Assembly: GCA_050744025.1 (NCBI GenBank) | Contig: JBOGGR010000327.1 | Span: 1-13,468, forward strand | DNA: 13,468 nt | Direction of reading: 5' to 3' | Source: Acidimicrobiales bacterium | GTDB lineage: Bacteria; Actinomycetota; Acidimicrobiia; Acidimicrobiales; JAJPHD01 | Shown: in pieces, positions 1 to 8,128 of the stretch | Numbering within the stretch: position 1 is the stretch's first letter | How the letters are laid out: every line of letters begins with the position of its first letter | Position numbers and translations under genes: made by a program | Notes under the pieces: model-generated | The model's database searches: none | What the model was told of the DNA's origin: nothing | Seen by the model: the letters and a program-made list of their open reading frames with translations, nothing else

Positions 1-1131
1 CCCCCCGGCCCGCTCGGCACCTGCTCGAAGGGCCCCGCCCCGCAGGGCAGCCGGGCGGCTGCTGCCGCCGCCGGTCATGGCGGCCACCGCCGCAGGAGTC
101 AGCAGCAACGACGCCTCGCCCCTGGCCTCCAGCTTGCGGCGGATGCCCCGGTAGCGGGGCTCACGTTCCTTGAACAAGGAGAGGAGCGGGGAGGCGATGA
201 AGATCGACGAGTAGGCCCCGCTGGTGAGGCCGATGACCAGGGCCAGTCCGAACTCCTGGAGGGTGGTGGCCCCCAGCAGCTCGGCCCCGATGAGCAGGAT
301 GGACAGGATCGGCAGGATGGCGGCGATCGAGGTGTTGAGCGAGCGCATCAGCACCTGGTTCATGGACAGGTTGACCGTGTCGGTGTACGTGAGGCGGCCG
401 GTGGCGCCGAGGCCCTTGGCGTTCTCCCTGACACGGTCGAAGACCACGATCGTGTCGTAGAGCGAGTACCCGAGGATGGTGAGCACGCCCACGACGGTGG
501 CCGGCGTCACCGGGAACCCGACCAGGGCGTAGATGCCCACGGTCACGACGAGGTCGTGGAGGACAGCGATCAGGGCGGCGGCGGCCATCTTCCACTCGAA
601 GCGGAACGTGATGTAGAGGCCGATGCAGATGAAGAAGATGATCAGGGCCCGGATGGCCTTGGACGTGATCTCGCCGCCCCAGGTCGGGCCCACGGACGTC
701 TCGCTCACGGCTGTGGGGTTCACGTGGGCGAGCCGGGCCAGCGCGGCCGCCACCGACTGCTTGGTGGCAGCCTGCTGGGCCGGAGTGCCGGTCACCTGGG
801 CCTGGACGTCCAGGGTCCTGCTGGTGCCGCTGCCCAGGGTCTGGATGGTGGCGTTGGTGCCCGCCGCCCCGAGGGCGGTGCGAGCCTGGGACGGGGTGAC
901 CGCTGTGGTCGACACCTCCCAGGAGGTCCCGCCCTTGAAGTCGATGCCGAAGTTGAGGCCCTTGACGCCGAGGGCGGCCATGCCGGCCACGATGACGACG
1001 GCCGATATGGCGAACCACCGCCGCCACTTCCCCACGAAGTCGAAGGACGTCTCCCCCCGGTACAGGCGGGTCCAGATGCTGTGGCGCCGCTCTTCCTCCA
1101 CCGCGGCGGCGACGGCGTCGGTGGCGGTCAC
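1..1131 (-). CDS. secF: Protein-export membrane protein SecF, 3' end truncated by the window edge. GTG start at 1131 overlaps the secD stop in a GTGA arrangement.
   Basis: Hand translation of the minus strand from GTG at 1131-1129 gives VTATDAVAAAVEEERRHSIWTRLYRGETSFDFVGKWRRWFAISAVVIVAGMAALGVKGLNFGIDFKGGTSWEV...LIIFFICIGLYITFRFEWKMAAAALIAVLHDLVVTVGIYALVGFPVTPATVVGVLTILGYSLYDTIVVFDRVREN...LTSGAYSSIFIASPLLSLFKEREPRY. These are classic SecF motifs and TM topology. There is an in-frame TGA 24 nt upstream of the GTG, and the frame stays open to position 1. The ORF track does not list it because it has no ATG and no stop inside the window; the track ORF 161..1159(-) is the wrong frame. Confidence 0.9.
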   Translation of the reverse strand, partial: MTATDAVAAAVEEERRHSIWTRLYRGETSFDFVGKWRRWFAISAVVIVAGMAALGVKGLNFGIDFKGGTSWEVSTTAVTPSQARTALGAAGTNATIQTLGSGTSRTLDVQAQVTGTPAQQAATKQSVAAALARLAHVNPTAVSETSVGPTWGGEITSKAIRALIIFFICIGLYITFRFEWKMAAAALIAVLHDLVVTVGIYALVGFPVTPATVVGVLTILGYSLYDTIVVFDRVRENAKGLGATGRLTYTDTVNLSMNQVLMRSLNTSIAAILPILSILLIGAELLGATTLQEFGLALVIGLTSGAYSSIFIASPLLSLFKEREPRYRGIRRKLEARGEASLLLTPAAVAAMTGGGSSRPAALRGGALRAGAERAGG

Positions 1132-2651
1132 CCGGCCCCCTGACCGGCCGGTGCCTCACCCCGGCGAAGGGCCCGGTCGCCCCGGACGGCCGGGGTGGCG
1201 AGGCCCCTCGCCACCCCGATGAACCGGGCCTCGGTGAAGAAGCGGCTCCGGCCGAGCAGGATCACGAAGGGACGGGTGAAGGTCCAGGCCGTGACCAGGT
1301 CTAGGAGGGTGGACAGGCCGAGGTAGAAGGCGAAGTTCTTGACGTCGGCGGTGGAAAAGACGTAGAGCACCACGGCCCCGATGAGCGACACCAGGTCGGC
1401 GGCGACGATGGTGCGGAATGCGGCCGTGAAGCCGCGGTCCACCGAGGACCGCACGGACTTGCCCGATCTGACCTCGTCCTTCAGGCGCTCGAAGAAGACT
1501 ATGTAGGAGTCGACGATGACCCCCACCGACACGATCAGGCCGGTGATGCCGGCCAGGTCGAGGGTCAGGCCGGCCGGCGAGTGGCCGAGGTAGGAGATGA
1601 TGGCCCACAGCAGCAGCGCCGTCGTGACCAGGCCGAGGAGCACGACGATCCCGAGCGCCCGGTAGTAGAGGACGGTGTAGATGAACACCAGGGCAAGGCC
1701 CACGATGGCGGCCAGGATGCCGGCCTTGAGCGAGGCCGTCCCCAGGGTGGGCGAGACGCTCTGCACCGTCTGCTGGATGAGTTGGACGGGCAGGGCGCCG
1801 TAGCGCAGCTCGAGGGCCAGGTCCTTGGCCTGGGACTCGGTGAAGCTGCCGGTGATCTGACCCTTGCCGCCGAAAGTCCTGGCCTGGATGACCGGGGCCG
1901 ACTCGACCACGCCGTCCAGGACGATGGCGACCTGCTTTTGGTAGTTGGCCGTGGCGATGCTGTCGAAGGTGGGCGAGCCCTTGGCGGTGAGGGTGAAGTT
2001 GACCTGCCACTGGCCGGTCTGGGTGTTGAGGCCGGCGTTGGCGGTCTTGATGATCGTGCCGCTCGCCTGAGACGGTCCGAGGATGTAGCGGCCGGGGACC
2101 GACCCGTTGACCGACTTGAGCGGGAGCAGGACCTCTACCCCCGGCGTGTCCAGGCTCCTCGGCGTGCTGGGCACGTCGGCGAAGTTGACGTTGGTGCTGG
2201 AGGAGGTCGGACAGGCCGGGGGCGGCCCGTGGAGGGTGGGGGGGGACTTGCCCTTGGGAACGGGCTTGGTCGGTGAGTAGGCCGGGAGCGGCCCGGAGGC
2301 CGAGGCGGGCGGGCAGAGGACGGGCCGGAATCGCAGCTGGGCCGTCTGGCCGATGACGGCCAGGGCCTGGGCCCGGTTCTTCACGCCCGGGAGCTGGACG
2401 CTGATGTTGCCCCCGGCGCTGCTGATGTTGGGCTGGGACACGCCGAACGCGTCGACCCGGTTGCGGATGATGGCGATGGTCTGGGTGATGACGTCTGGCT
2501 TCACCGGGTGGGCCGGCTTGTACACGACCGAGATCCCGCCCTGGAGGTCCAGGCCGAGCAGGGGGGCCCAGCCCAGGGCCACCACGGCGACGAAGACGGC
2601 GATCGAGACGGCGATCGTCCCGCTCACCCAGGCCCACAGCCGGCCCCTCAT
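1128..2651 (-). CDS. secD: Protein-export membrane protein SecD
   Basis: The 507-aa ORF has an N-terminal TM helix (MRGRLWAWVSGTIAVSIAVFVAVVALGW), then LDLQGGISVVY, NRVDAFGVSQPNI, a periplasmic P1 domain, and a C-terminal six-TM SecD/SecF core (LKAGILAAIVGLALVFIYTVLYYR...GITGLIVSVGVIVDSYIVFFERLKDE). It sits directly upstream of secF with a 4-nt overlap. It contains a Pro-rich low-complexity linker (PPASASGPLPAYSPTKPVPKGKSPPTLHGPPPACPTSSS). Confidence 0.92.
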   Translation of the reverse strand: MRGRLWAWVSGTIAVSIAVFVAVVALGWAPLLGLDLQGGISVVYKPAHPVKPDVITQTIAIIRNRVDAFGVSQPNISSAGGNISVQLPGVKNRAQALAVIGQTAQLRFRPVLCPPASASGPLPAYSPTKPVPKGKSPPTLHGPPPACPTSSSTNVNFADVPSTPRSLDTPGVEVLLPLKSVNGSVPGRYILGPSQASGTIIKTANAGLNTQTGQWQVNFTLTAKGSPTFDSIATANYQKQVAIVLDGVVESAPVIQARTFGGKGQITGSFTESQAKDLALELRYGALPVQLIQQTVQSVSPTLGTASLKAGILAAIVGLALVFIYTVLYYRALGIVVLLGLVTTALLLWAIISYLGHSPAGLTLDLAGITGLIVSVGVIVDSYIVFFERLKDEVRSGKSVRSSVDRGFTAAFRTIVAADLVSLIGAVVLYVFSTADVKNFAFYLGLSTLLDLVTAWTFTRPFVILLGRSRFFTEARFIGVARGLATPAVRGDRALRRGEAPAGQGAG

Positions 2652-2705
2652 GGCTCCACCGCTCGCGCCGCCATGCTCACCGGGGCACGGTCTTCGAGGG
2701 TGCCC

Positions 2706-3425
2706 TCACTCAGCGCGCCGCTCCCTTGGTGTCGCCTTCCGCGGCGGCGCCTTCTCCAGGTCGGGGGATGCCGGTGCCACGCCGAAGATGCGACCCAGGT
2801 CGGCGCCCCGGCCCGCCTTGCCGTTGCGTACCCGGCCGTCGCGCCCGGCACCGCCCGGCGCGGCCCCGTCGACTCGGGGGGCGTTGCCTCGGGCGGCTCC
2901 GTCGTGCCCGGCCTTCTCGAGGTGGCGACCATCCCGGCCTTCGCCCTCCTCGTCCTCGTCCTCCTCTTCGACGGCGTCTCCGCTCCCGTCCTCGTCCTGC
3001 TCGGACTCCTCGGGGTGGTAGCCGTGCCAGCCGCGGTCCTCCTCGTCGTCGTCGTCGTCGTACTCCTCGTCGTCCCCGACCGTCCCCTCGTCCTCGACGT
3101 CGGTGTCCACTGCAGGCTCGATCTTGCGGGATATGGCCTGGCGGATGAACTCCAGCTCCAGGTCCGGACCCACCTCGAGGATGGTGCGGTCGCCCTCGAT
3201 CGAGACCACCCGCCCGACGATCCCCCCGATGGTGACGACGGTGTCGCCCTCCTCCACCGACTTCTGCGCCTGCTGTTGGCGCTGCTGTCGCTTGCGCTGG
3301 GGCCTGAAGATGAGGAGGTACGCGATGATCAGGAGGGGGATGATGAAGATGATGAAGCTGCCGGAGCCGCTGGACTTCTTTGCTGCGGCGACGAGCAGGG
3401 TCGGAACCAGGAAGATCGTGTGCAT
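2706..3425 (-). CDS. yajC: Preprotein translocase subunit YajC with an unusually long low-complexity C-terminal tail, acidic first and then basic
   Basis: The N-terminal 100 aa (MHTIFLVPTLLVAAAKKSSGSGSFIIFIIPLLIIAYLLIFRPQRKRQQRQQQAQKSVEEGDTVVTIGGIVGRVVSIEGDRTILEVGPDLELEFIRQAISRKIE) match the YajC fold, with a single TM followed by a GGIxG beta domain. ATG at 3425. The gene is in the conserved position between tgt and secD. The remaining ~140 aa are D/E-rich (EEYDDDDDEEDRG...EEEDEDEEGEG) and then R/G/A-rich. Confidence 0.85.
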   Translation of the reverse strand: MHTIFLVPTLLVAAAKKSSGSGSFIIFIIPLLIIAYLLIFRPQRKRQQRQQQAQKSVEEGDTVVTIGGIVGRVVSIEGDRTILEVGPDLELEFIRQAISRKIEPAVDTDVEDEGTVGDDEEYDDDDDEEDRGWHGYHPEESEQDEDGSGDAVEEEDEDEEGEGRDGRHLEKAGHDGAARGNAPRVDGAAPGGAGRDGRVRNGKAGRGADLGRIFGVAPASPDLEKAPPRKATPRERRAE

Positions 3426-3530
3426 GTCGATGGCCTTCGCGCTCGGAGCGGGCGACCATCGACGTTAGCCGACCTGGAGGCCCGCGCCGGTGCGGGGCAA
3501 GTCCGGGGGCCCGCGGCCGGGCGTCCCGGG

Positions 3531-3578
3531 CCGGGGGGCTGGTGGGGCGGTTGGCCGGGGGGCTGGTGGGGCGATTGG
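3531..3578. repeat. Perfect-but-one 24-bp tandem direct repeat x2 (ccggggggctggtggggcg[g/a]ttgg) in the tgt-yajC intergenic region, followed by a partial third copy (ccgggcgcc). G-tract-rich on the plus strand.
   Basis: Read directly in the sequence: copies at 3531-3554 and 3555-3578. It lies between the tgt stop (3595) and the yajC start (3425). Confidence 0.8.
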
Positions 3579-3594
3579 CCGGGCGCCGCTGGGC

Positions 3595-4788
3595 TCACGA
3601 CCAGACCGCGGCCACCTCGGCCCGGAGCCGGGCCAGCCGCCCGGCCGCCACCGCCGCCCTGGCCCGGGCCACCAGCCCGAGGGTCCAGGCCAGGTTGTGG
3701 AGGCTGAGCAGGCGGAGGACGGTCGGCTCCCCCACGGCCATGAGGTGACGGAGGTAGGCCCGGGACCAACGGGCGCACACCGGGCAGGGACAGGCTGGGT
3801 CCGGCGGCGCCGGGTCGGCCCGGTGGGCGGCCCGGCGCAGGGACACCGGGCCCGTGGCGGTCAGCACCCGGCCGTGGCGGGCCAGACGGGTGGGCGCCAC
3901 GCAGTCGAACAGGTCGACGCCGAGGGCGACGGCCTCCACCAGGCCGAGCGGATCGCCGACCCCCATCAGGTAGCGCGGCCGGTCCGGGGGCAGCTCCGCC
4001 AGGGCGGCAGCCAGCGCTGCCAGCATCTGGTCCCGGCGCTCCCCCACGGACAGCCCGCCGATGCCGTAGCCGGCGAAACCCAGCTCGGCCGTGCGCCGGG
4101 CGCTCCCGGCCCGCAGGCCCTCGTCCACCCCGCCTTGGACGATCCCGAACAGGGCCTGCCCCTCCCGCCGGTGAGCCCGGCGGGCCCGCTCGGCCCACCG
4201 CAGGGTGCGATCGGCCGCCTCCTGCACCACCTCGGCCGGCGCCGGGAGGCGCGGGCATACATCGAGGGCCATCTGGATGTCCGCTCCGAGCTGCTCCTGG
4301 ACGGCGACGGCCCCCTCGGGCGTCAGCAGGTGGAGGCTGCCGTCGTAGACCGACTTGAACCGGACCCCCTCCTCCTCCACCTGGCCCGAGAGAGACATGA
4401 CCTGGAAGCCCCCGGAGTCGGTGAGGACGTGGCCGGGCCAGGCGGCGAAGCCGTGGATGCCCCCGAGGGCGGCCACCACGTCCGCCCCGGGCCGGAGCAT
4501 GAGGTGATAGGTGTTCGAGAGGACCACCTGGGCGCCCAGGTCCTCGAGATCAGCGCCGGAGAGGGCCCGCACGCTGCCCCTGGTGGCGACCGGCATGAAG
4601 CACGGCGTGGCGAAGCTCCCCCTGGGCGTCTCCACCCGGCCGGCCCGAGCCCCGCCGTCGGTGGCCTCGACCACCAGACGCAGGTCGGCGCTCGCTGCCC
4701 CCCCCCGGCCGCCGGCCGGGTCGCCGGCGCTCAAAGGGTCGCCGGCGCTCAACGGGTCGCCGGCGCTCAGCGGGTCGCCGGCGCTCAA
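3595..4788 (-). CDS. tgt: Queuine tRNA-ribosyltransferase (tRNA-guanine transglycosylase). The start is uncertain: a TTG at 4788 overlaps the queA stop in a TTGA arrangement and would add an N-terminal (LSAGDP)x4 repeat; the conservative alternative is a GTG at 4674.
   Basis: The C-terminal 360 aa of the track's 1029-aa ORF read ...LRLVVEATDGGARAGRVETPRGSFATPCFMPVATRGSVRALSGADLEDLGAQVVLSNTYHLMLRPG...LTDSGGFQVMSL...GIVQGG...YLMGVGDP...CPCPVCARWSRAYLRHL. This is the Tgt catalytic core with its CxCxxC...H zinc site. The part of that ORF upstream of ~4800 is low-complexity read-through and is not real. GC3 stays high in the Tgt frame through the 18-bp repeats, which supports the long start. The GTG at 4674 aligns with the canonical Tgt N-terminus (E. 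coli MKFELDTTDGRARRG). Confidence 0.85.
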   Translation of the reverse strand: MSAGDPLSAGDPLSAGDPLSAGDPAGGRGGAASADLRLVVEATDGGARAGRVETPRGSFATPCFMPVATRGSVRALSGADLEDLGAQVVLSNTYHLMLRPGADVVAALGGIHGFAAWPGHVLTDSGGFQVMSLSGQVEEEGVRFKSVYDGSLHLLTPEGAVAVQEQLGADIQMALDVCPRLPAPAEVVQEAADRTLRWAERARRAHRREGQALFGIVQGGVDEGLRAGSARRTAELGFAGYGIGGLSVGERRDQMLAALAAALAELPPDRPRYLMGVGDPLGLVEAVALGVDLFDCVAPTRLARHGRVLTATGPVSLRRAAHRADPAPPDPACPCPVCARWSRAYLRHLMAVGEPTVLRLLSLHNLAWTLGLVARARAAVAAGRLARLRAEVAAVWS

Positions 4789-4792
4789 CGTC
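4721..4792. repeat. 18-bp tandem repeat x4 (tcgccggcgctcaVNggg; unit starts at 4721, 4739, 4757 and 4775) at the queA 3' end and tgt 5' junction. A C9 homopolymer lies immediately adjacent at 4698-4706.
   Basis: Read directly in the sequence. In the tgt frame it encodes the hexapeptide SAGDPL x4. The last copy contains the queA stop codon (4785-4787). Confidence 0.85.
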
Positions 4793-5783
4793 GGGCGACC
4801 AGCATGGCGTCGCCGAACGAGAGGAAGCGGTAGCCCGAGTCGCGGGCGACCCCGTACAGGTGGCGCCACCGCTCCCCGCAGAACGCCTCCACCATCAGCA
4901 GGAGGGACGACCGGGGAAGGTGGAAGTTCGTGAGGAGCACGTCCACCACCCGCCAGTCGTGGTGGCCGTGGATGTAGAGCGACGTCCGGCCGGCCAGGCG
5001 GCCGGTCACCTCCACCGTCTCGAGCGCCCTGACCGTGGTCGTGCCCACCGCCACCACCCGGCGGGCCGTGCGGCAGGCCTCCATCGTCGAGGCGGGCACG
5101 TCGTAGGCCTCGGTGTGGATCACGTGGTCCTCGGGACGCTCGGCCGTCACCGGGCGGAACGTGTCCAGGCCGACGGCGAGGTCGACCGCGACCACTCCGA
5201 TCCCGGCCCGGCTGAGCCGGTCCAGCACAGGAGCGTCGAGGTGGAGCCCGGCCGTCGGCGCCGCCACCGACCCCGGGCGATGGGCGTACACGGTCTGGTA
5301 GCGCGACGGGTCGGCCAGGGGCCGGTGGAGGTAGGGCGGCAGGGGCAGGCTGCCGTGGACCTCGGGCAGGGAGGGATCCAGGAGGTTGACGACCCGCCGG
5401 CCCTCGCCGAGGTCCTCCCCGACCTCCAGGGCGGCCGCCTCCCCGGCGTAGAGGGTGTCGCCGGGGCGCACCTTGCGGGAGTGGCGAACGAGGGCCTCCC
5501 AGCGCACCGGCGCAGCGGCGGTCCCCCGCGCGAGGGGTGTGAGGAGGAGGACCTCGACCGCCCCGCCGGTAGGCCGGCGAAGATGGAGCCGGGCCGGGAG
5601 GACCTTGGTGTCGTTCACCACGACCAGGTCGCCAGGCCCCAGCAGGTCGGGGAGGTCCGCCACCCTCCTGTGGTCCAGGGTGCCACCCGGGTCGGTGGCC
5701 ACGAGGAGGCGGGCCGAGCTGCGGGGCTCCGCCGGCTCCTGGGCGATGGCGGTCTCCGGGAGGTCGTAGTCGTACGCAGCCAT
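4785..5783 (-). CDS. queA: S-adenosylmethionine:tRNA ribosyltransferase-isomerase QueA. ATG at 5783; an alternative GTG at 5795 would add VGQP.
   Basis: The translation MAAYDYDLPETAIAQEPAEPRSSARLLV...VVNDTKVLPARL...YQTVYA...PGSVAAPTAGLHL...VGTTTVRALE...LTNFHLPRSSLLLMVEAF...YRFLSFGDAML aligns along its whole length with E. coli QueA (MRVTDFSFELPESLIA...YQTVYS...PGAVAAPTAGLHF...NFHLPEST...YRFFSYGDAMF). Confidence 0.92.
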   Translation of the reverse strand: MAAYDYDLPETAIAQEPAEPRSSARLLVATDPGGTLDHRRVADLPDLLGPGDLVVVNDTKVLPARLHLRRPTGGAVEVLLLTPLARGTAAAPVRWEALVRHSRKVRPGDTLYAGEAAALEVGEDLGEGRRVVNLLDPSLPEVHGSLPLPPYLHRPLADPSRYQTVYAHRPGSVAAPTAGLHLDAPVLDRLSRAGIGVVAVDLAVGLDTFRPVTAERPEDHVIHTEAYDVPASTMEACRTARRVVAVGTTTVRALETVEVTGRLAGRTSLYIHGHHDWRVVDVLLTNFHLPRSSLLLMVEAFCGERWRHLYGVARDSGYRFLSFGDAMLVARR

Positions 5784-5834
5784 GGGCTGACCCACGAGGT
5801 GACCGTAGCCGGGTCCCGGAGACCGGGCCGCTCG

Positions 5835-6449
5835 TCAACCGGTGGCGGCTCGGACGGCCGAGTACGCGGCGAAGCCGAGCAGGATCAGGGCCATGCACTG
5901 CTGGGCTCGGTAGATGGGCACCCGTTCCAGGACCTTCGCCCCGACAGACAGAGCCAGGCCGGAGACGGCCCACAGGGCTGCCAGCGCCCCCACGGCCACC
6001 GACAGCGGGTCGGCGTACTGGGCCGCGAAGTTGGCCGTCGCCACCTGGGTGATATCGCCCCACTCGGCCAGGAACACCACTCCGAACGATGTGGCCACCA
6101 CCCGCCCCAGCGGGGCGGGGCGGCGCCCACTTCGGCGCGGGGGCGCCGCCTCGGCGAGAGCCGGCCCCTCGGCGGGAGGCCCCCGGCGGGCGGTGAGGAG
6201 CACGAAGACTCCTCCCGCGGCGAACAGCACAGCCACGACGGCCTCCACCAGCCGGTGGGGCAGCAGGGCGAACAGGCCCCCGGCCACCACGGCCACTGCG
6301 ACCTCGACCACGAAAGCCCCCGCCGCGCCCAGCCACACCGGGAACGGCCGGTGGCGGGTGGACAGGACCAACGAGGCGATCAGGCTCTTGTCGGGCAGCT
6401 CGCCGACGAAGACCACCCCGAACACCGTGGCGGCCAGGGCCAGGTTCAC
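5835..6449 (-). CDS. UPF0016/GDT1 (TMEM165, MneA-like) family putative Mn2+/Ca2+:H+ transporter. GTG start at 6449 lies 7 nt downstream of a GGGAGG SD.
   Basis: It has two copies of the family signature E-x-G-D-(K/R)-(S/T), namely ELPDKS and EWGDITQ, each at the start of a three-TM repeat. The protein is about 205 aa and hydrophobic. The track ORF (to 6632) extends through the riboswitch-like leader and is implausible. A GTG preceded by gtcGGGAGGccggcg gives an N-terminus (V/M)NLALAATVFGVVFVGELPDKS. Confidence 0.8.
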   Translation of the reverse strand: MNLALAATVFGVVFVGELPDKSLIASLVLSTRHRPFPVWLGAAGAFVVEVAVAVVAGGLFALLPHRLVEAVVAVLFAAGGVFVLLTARRGPPAEGPALAEAAPPRRSGRRPAPLGRVVATSFGVVFLAEWGDITQVATANFAAQYADPLSVAVGALAALWAVSGLALSVGAKVLERVPIYRAQQCMALILLGFAAYSAVRAATG

Positions 6450-6455
6450 CGCCGG

Positions 6456-6461
6456 CCTCCC
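6456..6461 (-). promoter_or_regulatory. Shine-Dalgarno GGGAGG for the UPF0016 transporter gene
   Basis: The minus strand reads gtcGGGAGGccggcgGTG; the plus-strand equivalent is cctccc at 6456-6461. Confidence 0.6.
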
Positions 6462-6480
6462 GACGTTCCCACGTGGGGGG

Positions 6481-6511
6481 GCTGTGCTGGCAACCGTGGC
6501 TGTGCTGGCAA
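6481..6511. repeat. 13-nt direct repeat x2 (plus gctgtgctggcaa; minus-strand RNA UUGCCAGCACAGC) separated by 5 nt, inside the 5' leader of the UPF0016 gene
   Basis: Read directly in the sequence: 6481-6493 and 6499-6511. Its UGCCAGC core is complementary to the GCUGGCA segment of the upstream aptamer candidate. Confidence 0.75.
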
Positions 6512-6587
6512 GCGCCCACTCCCTCCGGCTCTGGAGCCGGGGGGAAGGCGGGGAGCCACTTCGACCCGGCCCGACGGGCAGGTCGAA

Positions 6588-6691
6588 GGTCTCGCTCGTC
6601 CATCTCACACGATGGACCCAGTGGCCGGGCACCTGTAGGTGCCAGCATGTCGACCGGCTGGCAGGCGGAGCTACTCCCCTTCACCTGTCAG
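6588..6691 (-). promoter_or_regulatory. Candidate yybP-ykoY (manganese) riboswitch aptamer in the 5' leader of the UPF0016/GDT1 transporter gene
   Basis: The minus strand reads cugacagGUGAAGGGGAGUAGCuccgccugccagccggucGACAUGCUGGCAccuacaggugcccggccacuggguccaucgugugagauggacGAGCGAGACC. It contains the hallmark L1 element GGGGAGUAGC, a CGACAU..UGGCA segment, and a 3' GAGnGAGACC end, as recalled for the yybP-ykoY consensus. Length is about 104 nt. It sits immediately upstream of a UPF0016-family gene, one of the canonical gene classes controlled by this riboswitch. A possible -10 TAGGCT (plus 6690-6695) lies just 5' of it. No covariance-model scan was possible here. Confidence 0.55.
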
Positions 6692-6946
6692 CCTAGCGCG
6701 CCGGGCCGGCGCCAAGTGCGATGACCTCGTCGGCGAGTGGGCCTGCCCAGCAAGCGGACCAGCGACACCCGCCGGCAGGGGTTACCGTGGGCCATGGCCT
6801 CCGGCACCTGGAAGACCCTGCTCCGCCGCTTCCTCAGGCTGTGGCGGAGCCGCCGCCAGAAGAGGCAGCCGGGGCGGCGCTCCCGCTGGTAGCGGGCCGG
6901 GGGCAGCCTCGTCTGGTGAGATCCACGATCCGGGGAGCCCGGCTGC

Positions 6947-8128
6947 CTACGCTCCAGTCTCCTCGACCCGGGCCATCACTCCATCGGTGCCCGTGCCGGG
7001 GCCGGCGGAGGCGGTGCCGGAGCTGGGCCGGCCCGCCTGGGCCGTCCTTCCGGGCGCCGCCCGCTGGAGGGCGTCCAGGATGGCCATGCCCTGGCCGATC
7101 AGGCCCGTCAGCATCTCGCTGATGCCATCGGCGCCGTTCAGTACCGTCAGGTTGGATCCTGACAGCCCCGAAGCGGCCGCCGTCACGAGATCGGGCAGCT
7201 GGTCGACGACCCGGTTGGAGGCGAGCAGCTGCTGGTTGCCCTCCTTCAGGCTGTCCGCCCGCAGGCGCATGGCGTCCGCCTCGGCCTGGGCCAGGGTCCG
7301 CTGCCTGTACGCCTCAGCGTCGGCCGGCCGCCGCACTGTGCCCTCGAGCCGCTTGGCGGCAAGGTCGGCCTCCAGGACGGCGCGCTTCGTCTGCTCGGCG
7401 ATCGTGCGCTGCTCCGCCGCCGCCTGGGCGAGGGGGCCGGCCTGGCTGGCCTCGGCCTGGGCCGTGTCCACCTCGGCCTGGTAGCCAGCCTGGGCGATCC
7501 TGGCCTGGCGGACGTACTCGGCCTTGCGGGCCTCGGACTCCTGCTCCCGCTCGGTGGCCTCCTGCTCGGCCTGGGCCTGGGCGACCCGGGCATCCTTCTG
7601 GACGACGGCGATGTGGGGAGCAGCCAGGCTCTTGATGTAGCCCGTCTCGTCGGTTATCTCCTGGATCTGGAGGCTGTCCACCACCAGCCCCAGCTTCTCC
7701 ATCTCCGAAGCCGACGACGCCTTGACCTCCTGGGTCAGCCGATCCCGCTCCCGGATGATCTCCTCGACTGTCAGGCCACCGACGATCGACCGGAGATGGC
7801 CGGAGAAGACCCGCCCGGCCAGGGATTCCATGAGATCCTGCTGGTCCAGGAAGCGGCGGGCGGCATTGGCGATGGACGACTCGTCGTCGCCCACCTTGAA
7901 CACCACCACCGCCTGGACCAGCAGGGGGATGCCCTGCTTGGTCACGCAGGGCTCGGAGATGCTGGCCTCCCGCAGGTCCAGCGACATGTAGCGGGCCTTC
8001 TGCTTGACCGGGACGACGAAGCAGCCATGACCTGTGATGATCCTGAACTGCGGGCCGCCGGGGTCCTTGTGCTTGGACCCGGAGATCACGAGGGCCTCGT
8101 TGGGGGCTGGGACCTTCCAGAACAGCAC
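6947..8128 (-). CDS. Flotillin-like SPFH/band-7 protein (YqiK/FloT family). GTG start at 8128 is preceded by a perfect AAGGAG SD.
   Basis: The N-terminus reads (V)LFWKVPAPNEALVISG...FRIITGHGCFVVP...SLDLREASISEPCVTKQGIPLLVQAVVVFKVGDD, which is the SPFH domain. It is followed by a long Ala/Gln/Glu-rich coiled coil (AQAQAEQEATEREQESEARKAEYVRQARIAQAGYQAEVDTAQAEA...) and a flotillin C-terminal domain. There is an in-frame TGA 60 nt upstream of the GTG, so no N-terminal hydrophobic anchor can be added. Confidence 0.9.
   Translation of the reverse strand: MLFWKVPAPNEALVISGSKHKDPGGPQFRIITGHGCFVVPVKQKARYMSLDLREASISEPCVTKQGIPLLVQAVVVFKVGDDESSIANAARRFLDQQDLMESLAGRVFSGHLRSIVGGLTVEEIIRERDRLTQEVKASSASEMEKLGLVVDSLQIQEITDETGYIKSLAAPHIAVVQKDARVAQAQAEQEATEREQESEARKAEYVRQARIAQAGYQAEVDTAQAEASQAGPLAQAAAEQRTIAEQTKRAVLEADLAAKRLEGTVRRPADAEAYRQRTLAQAEADAMRLRADSLKEGNQQLLASNRVVDQLPDLVTAAASGLSGSNLTVLNGADGISEMLTGLIGQGMAILDALQRAAPGRTAQAGRPSSGTASAGPGTGTDGVMARVEETGA

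Follow-up and report, generated by a model that had tools for sequence, protein, structure and literature searches.

A probable three-way-junction yybP-ykoY (Mn2+) riboswitch upstream of a GDT1/UPF0016 exporter gene in Actinomycetota

The window analysed here, a 13,468-nt stretch of DNA from an Acidimicrobiales bacterium, carries a same-strand neighborhood on the minus strand (161-8128), consisting of a gene for an SPFH/Band-7 protein (6947-8128), a candidate riboswitch followed by a GDT1/UPF0016 transporter gene (5835-6449), queA (4785-5795), yajC (2706-3425) and secD (1128-2651). The arrangement is that of the queA-yajC-secDF region, a common one, into which the exporter gene has been inserted; several other large open reading frames (ORFs) gave no Pfam match. 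The transporter gene encodes a protein of 204 residues, which matched PF01169 in two stretches in a Pfam search (E 1.1e-34; 119 bits, with the cutoff at 27). Its translation contains GELPDKS and AEWGDITQ, and the two GDT1 repeats each have a motif of the E-x-G-D-(K/R)-(S/T) type, in agreement with the first-pass annotation of this DNA, which had recognized a UPF0016/GDT1 gene directly downstream of the element from the motifs ELPDKS and EWGDITQ. Both motifs deviate from the strict pattern, with P for G in ELPDKS and I for K/R in EWGDIT; ELPDK is kept across the homologs, and served as an anchor. The leader of this gene is that of a Mn2+ homeostasis gene (MntP, TerC, UPF0016 or P-type ATPase), and UPF0016 genes are a known regulon of the yybP-ykoY riboswitch (328 of 333 screened strains; PMC7380456).

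The start of the transporter gene was examined by comparison with its homologs. A GTG codon at 6449-6447 (minus strand) lies 16 codons ahead of the conserved Glu of ELPDK, compared with 16–17 codons in 60 homologs, and is preceded by a Shine-Dalgarno (SD) sequence, GGGAGG (6456-6461, minus strand), located 6 nt ahead of the start codon, with a purine-rich SD at equal distance from the start in the homologs. Conservation of the start-to-Glu distance supports GTG 6449 with its GGGAGG as the start, which had been proposed before. The longer minus-strand ORFs at 5835-6632 (265 aa) and 3595-6684 (1029 aa) are artefacts of high G+C content, and the start of the gene moves to GTG 6449. These two ORFs traverse the aptamer and the neighboring queA gene, and could mislead gene callers.

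Upstream of this start, all of the motif strings on which the first-pass annotation had relied were found on the minus strand, with AAGGGGAGUAGC at 6681-6670, GUCGACAUGCUGGCA at 6654-6640, and GAGCGAGACC at 6597-6588. Read 5' to 3' on the minus strand, the region consists of the segments TAGGCT, GACAGGU, GAAGG, GGAGUA, GCUC, CGCCUG, CCAG(C)CGGUCG, ACAUGCU, GGCACC and UACA, followed by GGUGCC, CGGCCACUGG, GUCCAUC, GUGUGA, GAUGGAC, GAGC, GAGA, CCUUC and GACC. The previous delimitation of the element to 6588-6691 was about right; the paired core extends from 6682 to 6585, so that three bases of the 3' strand of the first helix (6587-6585) had been cut off, and at its other end the interval ran on to the final C in the -10 hexamer, at 6691.

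TAGGCT (6690-6695, minus strand) is a putative -10 hexamer with its end 7 nt ahead of the first P1.1 base, and its position is kept among homologs, lending weight to its earlier designation as a -10 element. In 55 of 61 leaders, the distance from the end of a TANNNT sequence to GAAGG is 6–7 nt, and the number rises to 58 of 61 when three leaders with a distance of 10 nt are counted; the background frequency is 0.9% of 13-nt windows. A generic sigma-70 scan found no -35/-10 pair. The fixed distance suggests that transcription is likely to begin at the aptamer or slightly ahead of it.

The predicted aptamer is closed by the switch helix P1.1, with the 5' strand GAAGG (6678-6682, minus strand) pairing with 6589-6585. 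It is followed by the internal loop L1, whose 5' side GGAGUA (6672-6677, minus strand) is part of the invariant GGGGAGUAG, and by helix P1.2, in which GCUC (6668-6671, minus strand) pairs with GAGC (6597-6594). In the place of helix P2 there is a single-stranded linker, CGCCUG (6662-6667, minus strand), analogous to the L2 loop of alx. The P3 "left leg" (6618-6661, minus strand) comprises P3.1, L3, P3.2 and the loop UACA. In P3.1, 6661-6651 pairs with 6627-6618, with C6657 bulged and C6656/A6622 mismatched; the L3 bulge is ACAUGCU (6650-6644); and in P3.2, GGCACC (6643-6638) pairs with GGUGCC (6633-6628), all on the minus strand. The C6656/A6622 mismatch, and the G in place of A at L3 position 5, count against the assignment of the window element. 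The P4 hairpin (GUCCAUC-GUGUGA-GAUGGAC, 6598-6617, minus strand), whose loop varies in length in homologs, leads into the 3' closing segment (6585-6597, minus strand), which is composed of GAGC (6597-6594) for P1.2, GAGA (6593-6590) for L1, and CCUUC (6589-6585) for P1.1. An alternative P3.1 register, GGCUGG:CCGGCC, was dropped; the pairing CGGUGA:UCACCG in Acidimicrobiia is compatible, like the RF00080 structure line, with no register other than the one adopted. Minimum free energy folding of 6575-6700 alone gave a z-score of -1.45, with L1 paired with upstream bases and no junction; a single-sequence fold of this kind is uninformative for a G+C-rich RNA with tertiary structure.

To obtain homologous leaders, relatives of the transporter were collected by a single protein-anchored scan for GDT1 genes in one genome per species, which yielded 80 loci, all in metagenome-assembled genomes (MAGs) of Actinomycetota (Streptosporangiaceae, Acidimicrobiia and others), with 42–56% protein identity. 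In about 60 of these loci, GG[GA]GAGTA occurs approximately 170 nt ahead of the gene, with GAGACC following after approximately 80 nt. We aligned 58 distinct homolog aptamers, with the window left out (alignment A1), and wrote the consensus structure under guidance of the RF00080 structure line. It consists of P1.1 (GAAGG:CCUUC), L1 (GGAGUA/GAGA), P1.2 of 4 bp, a linker of 4–6 nt, a 10-bp P3.1 that has a single bulged base, L3 of 7 nt, P3.2 of at least 5 bp, and P4, followed directly by the 3' strand of P1.2. In A1, 96.6% of cells were paired, compared with 34–50% when the partners were slid by 1–3 columns; 15 pairs showed changes on both sides, compared with 2–8 in the slid controls; and the covariation score was 0.299, compared with 0.04–0.08. 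The observed values were reached by none of 500 shuffles. When the window was included, 96.8% of cells were paired and 19 pairs showed both-side changes, in an alignment that was structure-aware and fitted to the model, and that leans towards it; over both alignments the slid controls spanned 31–50%.

The covariation supports each of the helices P1.1, P1.2, P3.1, P3.2 and P4. In P1.1, 99.7% of the cells in A1 are paired, with one compensatory change (A-U to U-A), and P1.2 covaries with UCC:GGA and CCC:GGG in homologs, including 13 both-side changes at one pair. Changes on both sides were also found in 5–7 pairs of P3.1, three pairs of P3.2 and 4–5 pairs of P4. The pair formed by the base before L3 is informative across families, since mntP and the RF00080 consensus have A:U at this place and most of the homolog leaders have G:C.

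Among the loops, the L1 5' side is invariant in all 58 homologs, and the RF00080 consensus, E. coli mntP and E. coli alx have the same sequence there. In the window, the internal loop is formed by GGGGAGUAG on its 5' side and GAGA(CC) on its 3' side (6679-6671 and 6593-6588), and GAGACC is invariant or nearly so among homologs. L3 in the homologs reads ACAUACY, with the C and the second A invariant and the first A at least 90% conserved. The first-pass annotation had regarded L1 and the 3' GAGACC as conserved elements, and both are indeed kept, as is L3; the GCUGGCA part of its "downstream" element is the end of L3 together with the start of P3.2. For comparison, the L3 consensus of the family is ACAUACU in 1,063 sequences (PMC12153347). 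In solved structures, an L3 adenosine coordinates Mn2+ through N7 (PMC6754395, PMC12153347), and the L1 adenosine is extruded for an A-minor contact (PMC12153347, PMC6754395). A6648, in the L3 bulge of the window, corresponds to this Mn-coordinating adenosine of L3, and does not vary in A1.

From A1 and its structure, again without the window, we derived a covariance model (R1), which was run with filters off. In the window it matched 6687-6579 (minus strand) over the full model length with 79.8 bits and an E-value of ~2.5e-20 (R1 E-values are rough throughout, coming from a shortened calibration), and the next match scored 14.2 bits. Across 81 sources, R1 found the element in 62 of the 80 loci and in the window, always on the strand of the gene and immediately upstream of it, including two loci outside its building set (L071 and L025); the window is among the lowest-scoring members. 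In the remaining 18 loci, R1 gave no match ahead of the gene when the threshold was relaxed to E<=1 (L008, L012, L023, L026, L035, L042, L045, L047, L049, L051, L055, L063, L064, L066, L070, L072, L076 and L080); L012 has only ~80 nt of upstream sequence, and is therefore uninformative. Two other riboswitches were encountered among the homolog loci. An M-box Mg2+ riboswitch (RF00380, 131 bits; L033 3108-3296) lies directly downstream of a riboswitch-controlled GDT1 gene, placing two metal riboswitches at tandem loci, and a fluoride riboswitch (RF01734, 34.6 bits with a gathering score of 34; L058 5009-5070, minus strand) lies ~2 kb from a GDT1 gene.

The first-pass annotation had proposed a search with the Rfam model RF00080, and had named the absence of a match among the grounds for rejecting the element. 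Rfam 15 returned no family at the gathering score anywhere in the window, and RF00080 gave no match on 6400-6800, either at its gathering score of 45 bits or at E<=10. It also gave none in 20 homolog loci, and none on L001 at E<=10. That outcome was formally obtained, yet it is invalid as a test. The validated E. coli mntP riboswitch (L081 962-1058) scores 41.6 bits under RF00080, below the gathering score, and the validated E. coli alx riboswitch (L082 1878-1998) was not seen by the model at E<=1 on a 291-nt stretch. Because the same model fails on mntP and alx, the negative result carries no weight. The RF00080 model of Rfam 15 has 177 positions, leaves GGGGAGUAGC unpaired, has no pairs for P1, and stops short of the GAGACC on the 3' side.

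Next, the relationship to the two validated E. coli riboswitches was investigated with R1. On a 5-kb alx locus, the best match was the alx aptamer (1878-1998), with 44 bits and a rough E-value of 7e-11; it aligned end to end and helix by helix, with a linker of 4–5 nt in the place of P2 and a bulged base at the same position in P3.1. On a 3-kb locus, the best match was the mntP riboswitch (962-1077), with 18 bits and a similarly rough E-value of 6e-4; here L1, P1.2, P4 and GAGACC align, and 52 nt corresponding to P2 and P3 were treated as an insertion. In alx, for which there is a crystal structure, a short L2 capping loop takes the place of P2, and three-way-junction architectures are predicted for several families among the Rfam members (PMC12934788). 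The four-way junction expected in the first-pass annotation was not found; in all homologs the place of P2 holds a linker of 4–6 nt (6 nt in the window) and no hairpin, giving a three-way junction in which P2 is replaced by a short loop. The missing P2 does not disqualify the element, because alx, an accepted member of the family, also lacks it (PMC12153347).

Downstream of the aptamer, a competitor (anti-P1.1) hairpin (6553-6593, minus strand) is predicted, in which CUUCGACCU (6588-6580) pairs with GGGUCGAAG (6567-6559), extended by the pairing of GAG (6593-6591) with CUC (6555-6553). It is mutually exclusive with P1.1 and L1, and is present in all unconstrained folds shown. The competitor pairing was evaluated with RNAduplex at -20.1 kcal/mol in the window and at a mean of -18.4 kcal/mol in 60 leaders, compared with -11.9 kcal/mol for shuffled downstream sequence. 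The two arms covary among homologs (CGGCUG/CGGCCG, CGACC/GGUCG, CGUUC/GRACG, CCGUCC/GGGACGG and CCACCCGC/GCGGUGG), with the covariation lying outside the P1.1 core, and in L062, where P1.1 has changed to GGUUGG:CCACC, the competitor has changed to GCGGUGG. In many leaders, the GAGA of L1 can also pair with a downstream complement. P1.1 is a weak helix of 5 bp (GAAGG:CCUUC) whose 3' half has an alternative partner. In the family, Mn2+ stabilizes a weak P1.1 against strand invasion (PMC6754395, PMC12153347), and a competitor overlapping the 3' strand of P1.1 fits a switch that would be ON with Mn2+.

A scan for intrinsic terminators found none in the leader, with no U-tract after the competitor hairpin or after a second hairpin further downstream, so that a classical U-tract termination mechanism is not supported. 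Using constrained partition functions, the accessibility of the SD was compared between P1.1 forced and P1.1 prevented. It was higher with P1.1 forced in 41 of 60 leaders (Wilcoxon p 0.004), and among shifts exceeding 0.2, 12 leaders went up and one the other way. In the window, accessibility rose from 0.17 (prevented) to 0.23 (forced), a small shift, and in many leaders the shift is absent. In this modeling, a translational switch emerges as one possible output.

The second hairpin is a G+C-rich structure in the spacer (6514-6551, minus strand; core CCGGCUC-CA-GAGCCGG at 6540-6525), and was predicted in all three folds. Ahead of it lies the C-rich tract CUCCCCGCCUUCCCCCC, with complementarity to GGGGAG of L1 as well as to the SD GGGAGG. 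A C-rich tract, CUCCCCGCCUUCCCC, is located at 6541-6555, on the 3' side of the competitor arm, and related CUCCCC tracts are located there in many homologs; by its complementarity, the tract at 6541-6555 could serve as a second anti-aptamer or anti-SD element. The spacer from aptamer to start codon is ~55 nt longer in the window than in homologs. It contains a 17-nt sequence directly repeated in two copies at 18-nt spacing (6480-6514; GGCTGTGCTGGCAA[C/G]CG on the plus strand), which looks like a small tandem duplication and would account for part of the extra length. Tandem Repeats Finder reported nothing on the spacer; the repeat appeared in a direct-repeat search.

Collectively, these observations suggest that 6682-6585 (minus strand) is very probably a yybP-ykoY (Mn2+) riboswitch aptamer of the rarer three-helix, three-way-junction form, which would control the GDT1 exporter gene at 6449-5835 as a Mn-ON switch. 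The earlier proposal of a yybP-ykoY-type (Mn2+) aptamer before UPF0016/GDT1 is supported by the R1 score of 79.8 bits, the conserved L1 and L3, and the 44-bit match to alx. In the mechanism we propose, the aptamer would start at or beside the transcription start and control a GDT1/UPF0016 cation exporter gene. By analogy with solved family members, Mn2+ would bind between L1 and L3, docking the two legs, and the docking would stabilize the weak 5-bp switch helix P1.1 (GAAGG:CCUUC). Without Mn2+, the 3' strands of P1.1 and L1 would be captured by the stronger hairpin at 6593-6553, and this captured state would lower expression of the exporter, yielding an ON switch for Mn2+ efflux. Both the ligand and the ON direction are inferred from solved family members. 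The output may be exerted on translation initiation, through non-canonical or Rho-dependent termination, or on mRNA stability.

The same fold might respond to a different or an additional input, such as another divalent cation handled by GDT1 (e.g. Ca2+), or pH, coupled through the junction loop as in alx. The three-way architecture is common to the pH-tuned alx aptamer (PMC12934788), members of the GDT1 family are described as cation secondary transporters and not as carriers of Mn2+ alone (PMC7380456), and L3 position 5 in the window is G and not A. Against these points, L1 and the first four nucleotides of L3 follow the family consensus and not the UCAUUAC of alx-like members, and this consensus part includes the adenosine whose N7 gives Mn2+ selectivity (PMC12153347, PMC6754395); moreover, the pH response of alx requires alx's own L3 (PMC12934788). 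The first position of the alx-type L3 is U, while window and homologs have A, so that the window element falls outside the alx-like members as PMC12153347 defines them. We consider an altered input unlikely.

A conserved structured leader without ligand sensing, which might for example bind a protein, affect mRNA stability or act as a leader-peptide attenuator, is less likely still. Such a role would find some encouragement in an AUG located right after the competitor arm in a subset of homologs (GAAGAUGCUCCC), which was considered as the start of a leader peptide and rejected; the AUG is absent from most leaders, and the short frames that follow it are not conserved. The identity of the metal-site loops with those of validated riboswitches, and the reciprocal model matches to alx and mntP, would also be hard to explain for a leader that senses nothing.

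That the element is a canonical four-way-junction yybP-ykoY aptamer of ~104 nt, as first annotated, is contradicted by the alignment and hardly credible. L1, L3 and the 3' GAGACC do match the family consensus, but the 6 nt (4–6 nt in homologs) between P1.2 and P3 leave no room for a hairpin, the three-way alx aptamer aligns end to end while four-way mntP aligns with an insertion of 52 nt and 18 bits, and the unconstrained fold contains no four-way junction. A chance co-occurrence of the motifs in G+C-rich sequence has a negligible probability, since, although the 9-mer GGGGAGTAG by itself is not above chance (3 matches with at most one mismatch, against 4.7 expected) and the folding z-score of the region is modest, the margin between 79.8 bits and the next match, and the presence of the element upstream of 62 distant orthologs with compensatory changes, speak against it.

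With the three-way Mn2+ riboswitch as the preferred reading, a Mn2+ riboswitch before a UPF0016 exporter is a textbook pairing, and biologically expected. The pairing of yybP-ykoY with UPF0016 is already known (PMC7380456), as is the three-way subtype from alx. What is specific to the window element is the combination of a three-way junction with the consensus L3, in Actinomycetota, before GDT1, in a clade invisible to RF00080. RF00080 is blind to three-way members, including alx, and surveys based on it therefore under-count Mn2+ riboswitches in high-G+C Actinomycetota; the present clade has probably gone uncounted in surveys of UPF0016 riboswitches, because RF00080 does not detect it. We see an even chance that the leaders form a large clade of three-way-junction Mn2+ riboswitches across Actinomycetota (Streptosporangiaceae and Acidimicrobiia MAGs), combining the P2-less architecture of alx with the consensus L3, and absent from RF00080 lists as the model cannot score three-way members. 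If so, the three-way form would not be peculiar to enterobacteria, nor would it be bound to the sensing of alkaline pH, and the clade would offer a natural test of the junction loop versus L3 as the source of pH coupling. Three-way aptamers with the consensus L3 could in this way separate the effects of junction architecture from those of L3 sequence on the pH-coupled behavior of alx.

Among known systems, the element most closely recalls E. coli alx (PMC12153347, PMC12934788), with which it shares the lack of P2, a short linker between P1.2 and P3, the same order of helices, the same place for the bulge in P3.1, and a P1.1 3' strand that pairs alternatively with the expression platform. The two differ in L3, which here is of the family-consensus type (ACAUGCU in the window, ACAUACY in homologs) and not UCAUUAC, in the host (Actinomycetota and not Enterobacterales), in the gene that follows (GDT1/UPF0016, compared with a TerC-family gene in alx), and in P4, which here shows no terminator-like U-tract. 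With the Mn2+ riboswitches of mntP, L. lactis and X. oryzae (RF00080), it shares L1 (GGGGAGUAG...GAGACC) and the L3 consensus ACAUACU, from which the window departs at one position, and, as in the four-way members, the layout of the P3 leg is that of the RF00080 structure line and the downstream gene is a Mn2+ exporter. Those riboswitches, however, have helix P2 and a four-way junction, and in L. lactis and X. oryzae the switch works through U-tract terminators (PMC6754395), in contrast to the leader described here. The combination of gene family and riboswitch family is also the one seen where UPF0016 genes, such as mneA of Vibrio, are preceded by yybP-ykoY riboswitches (PMC7380456, PMC13274385).
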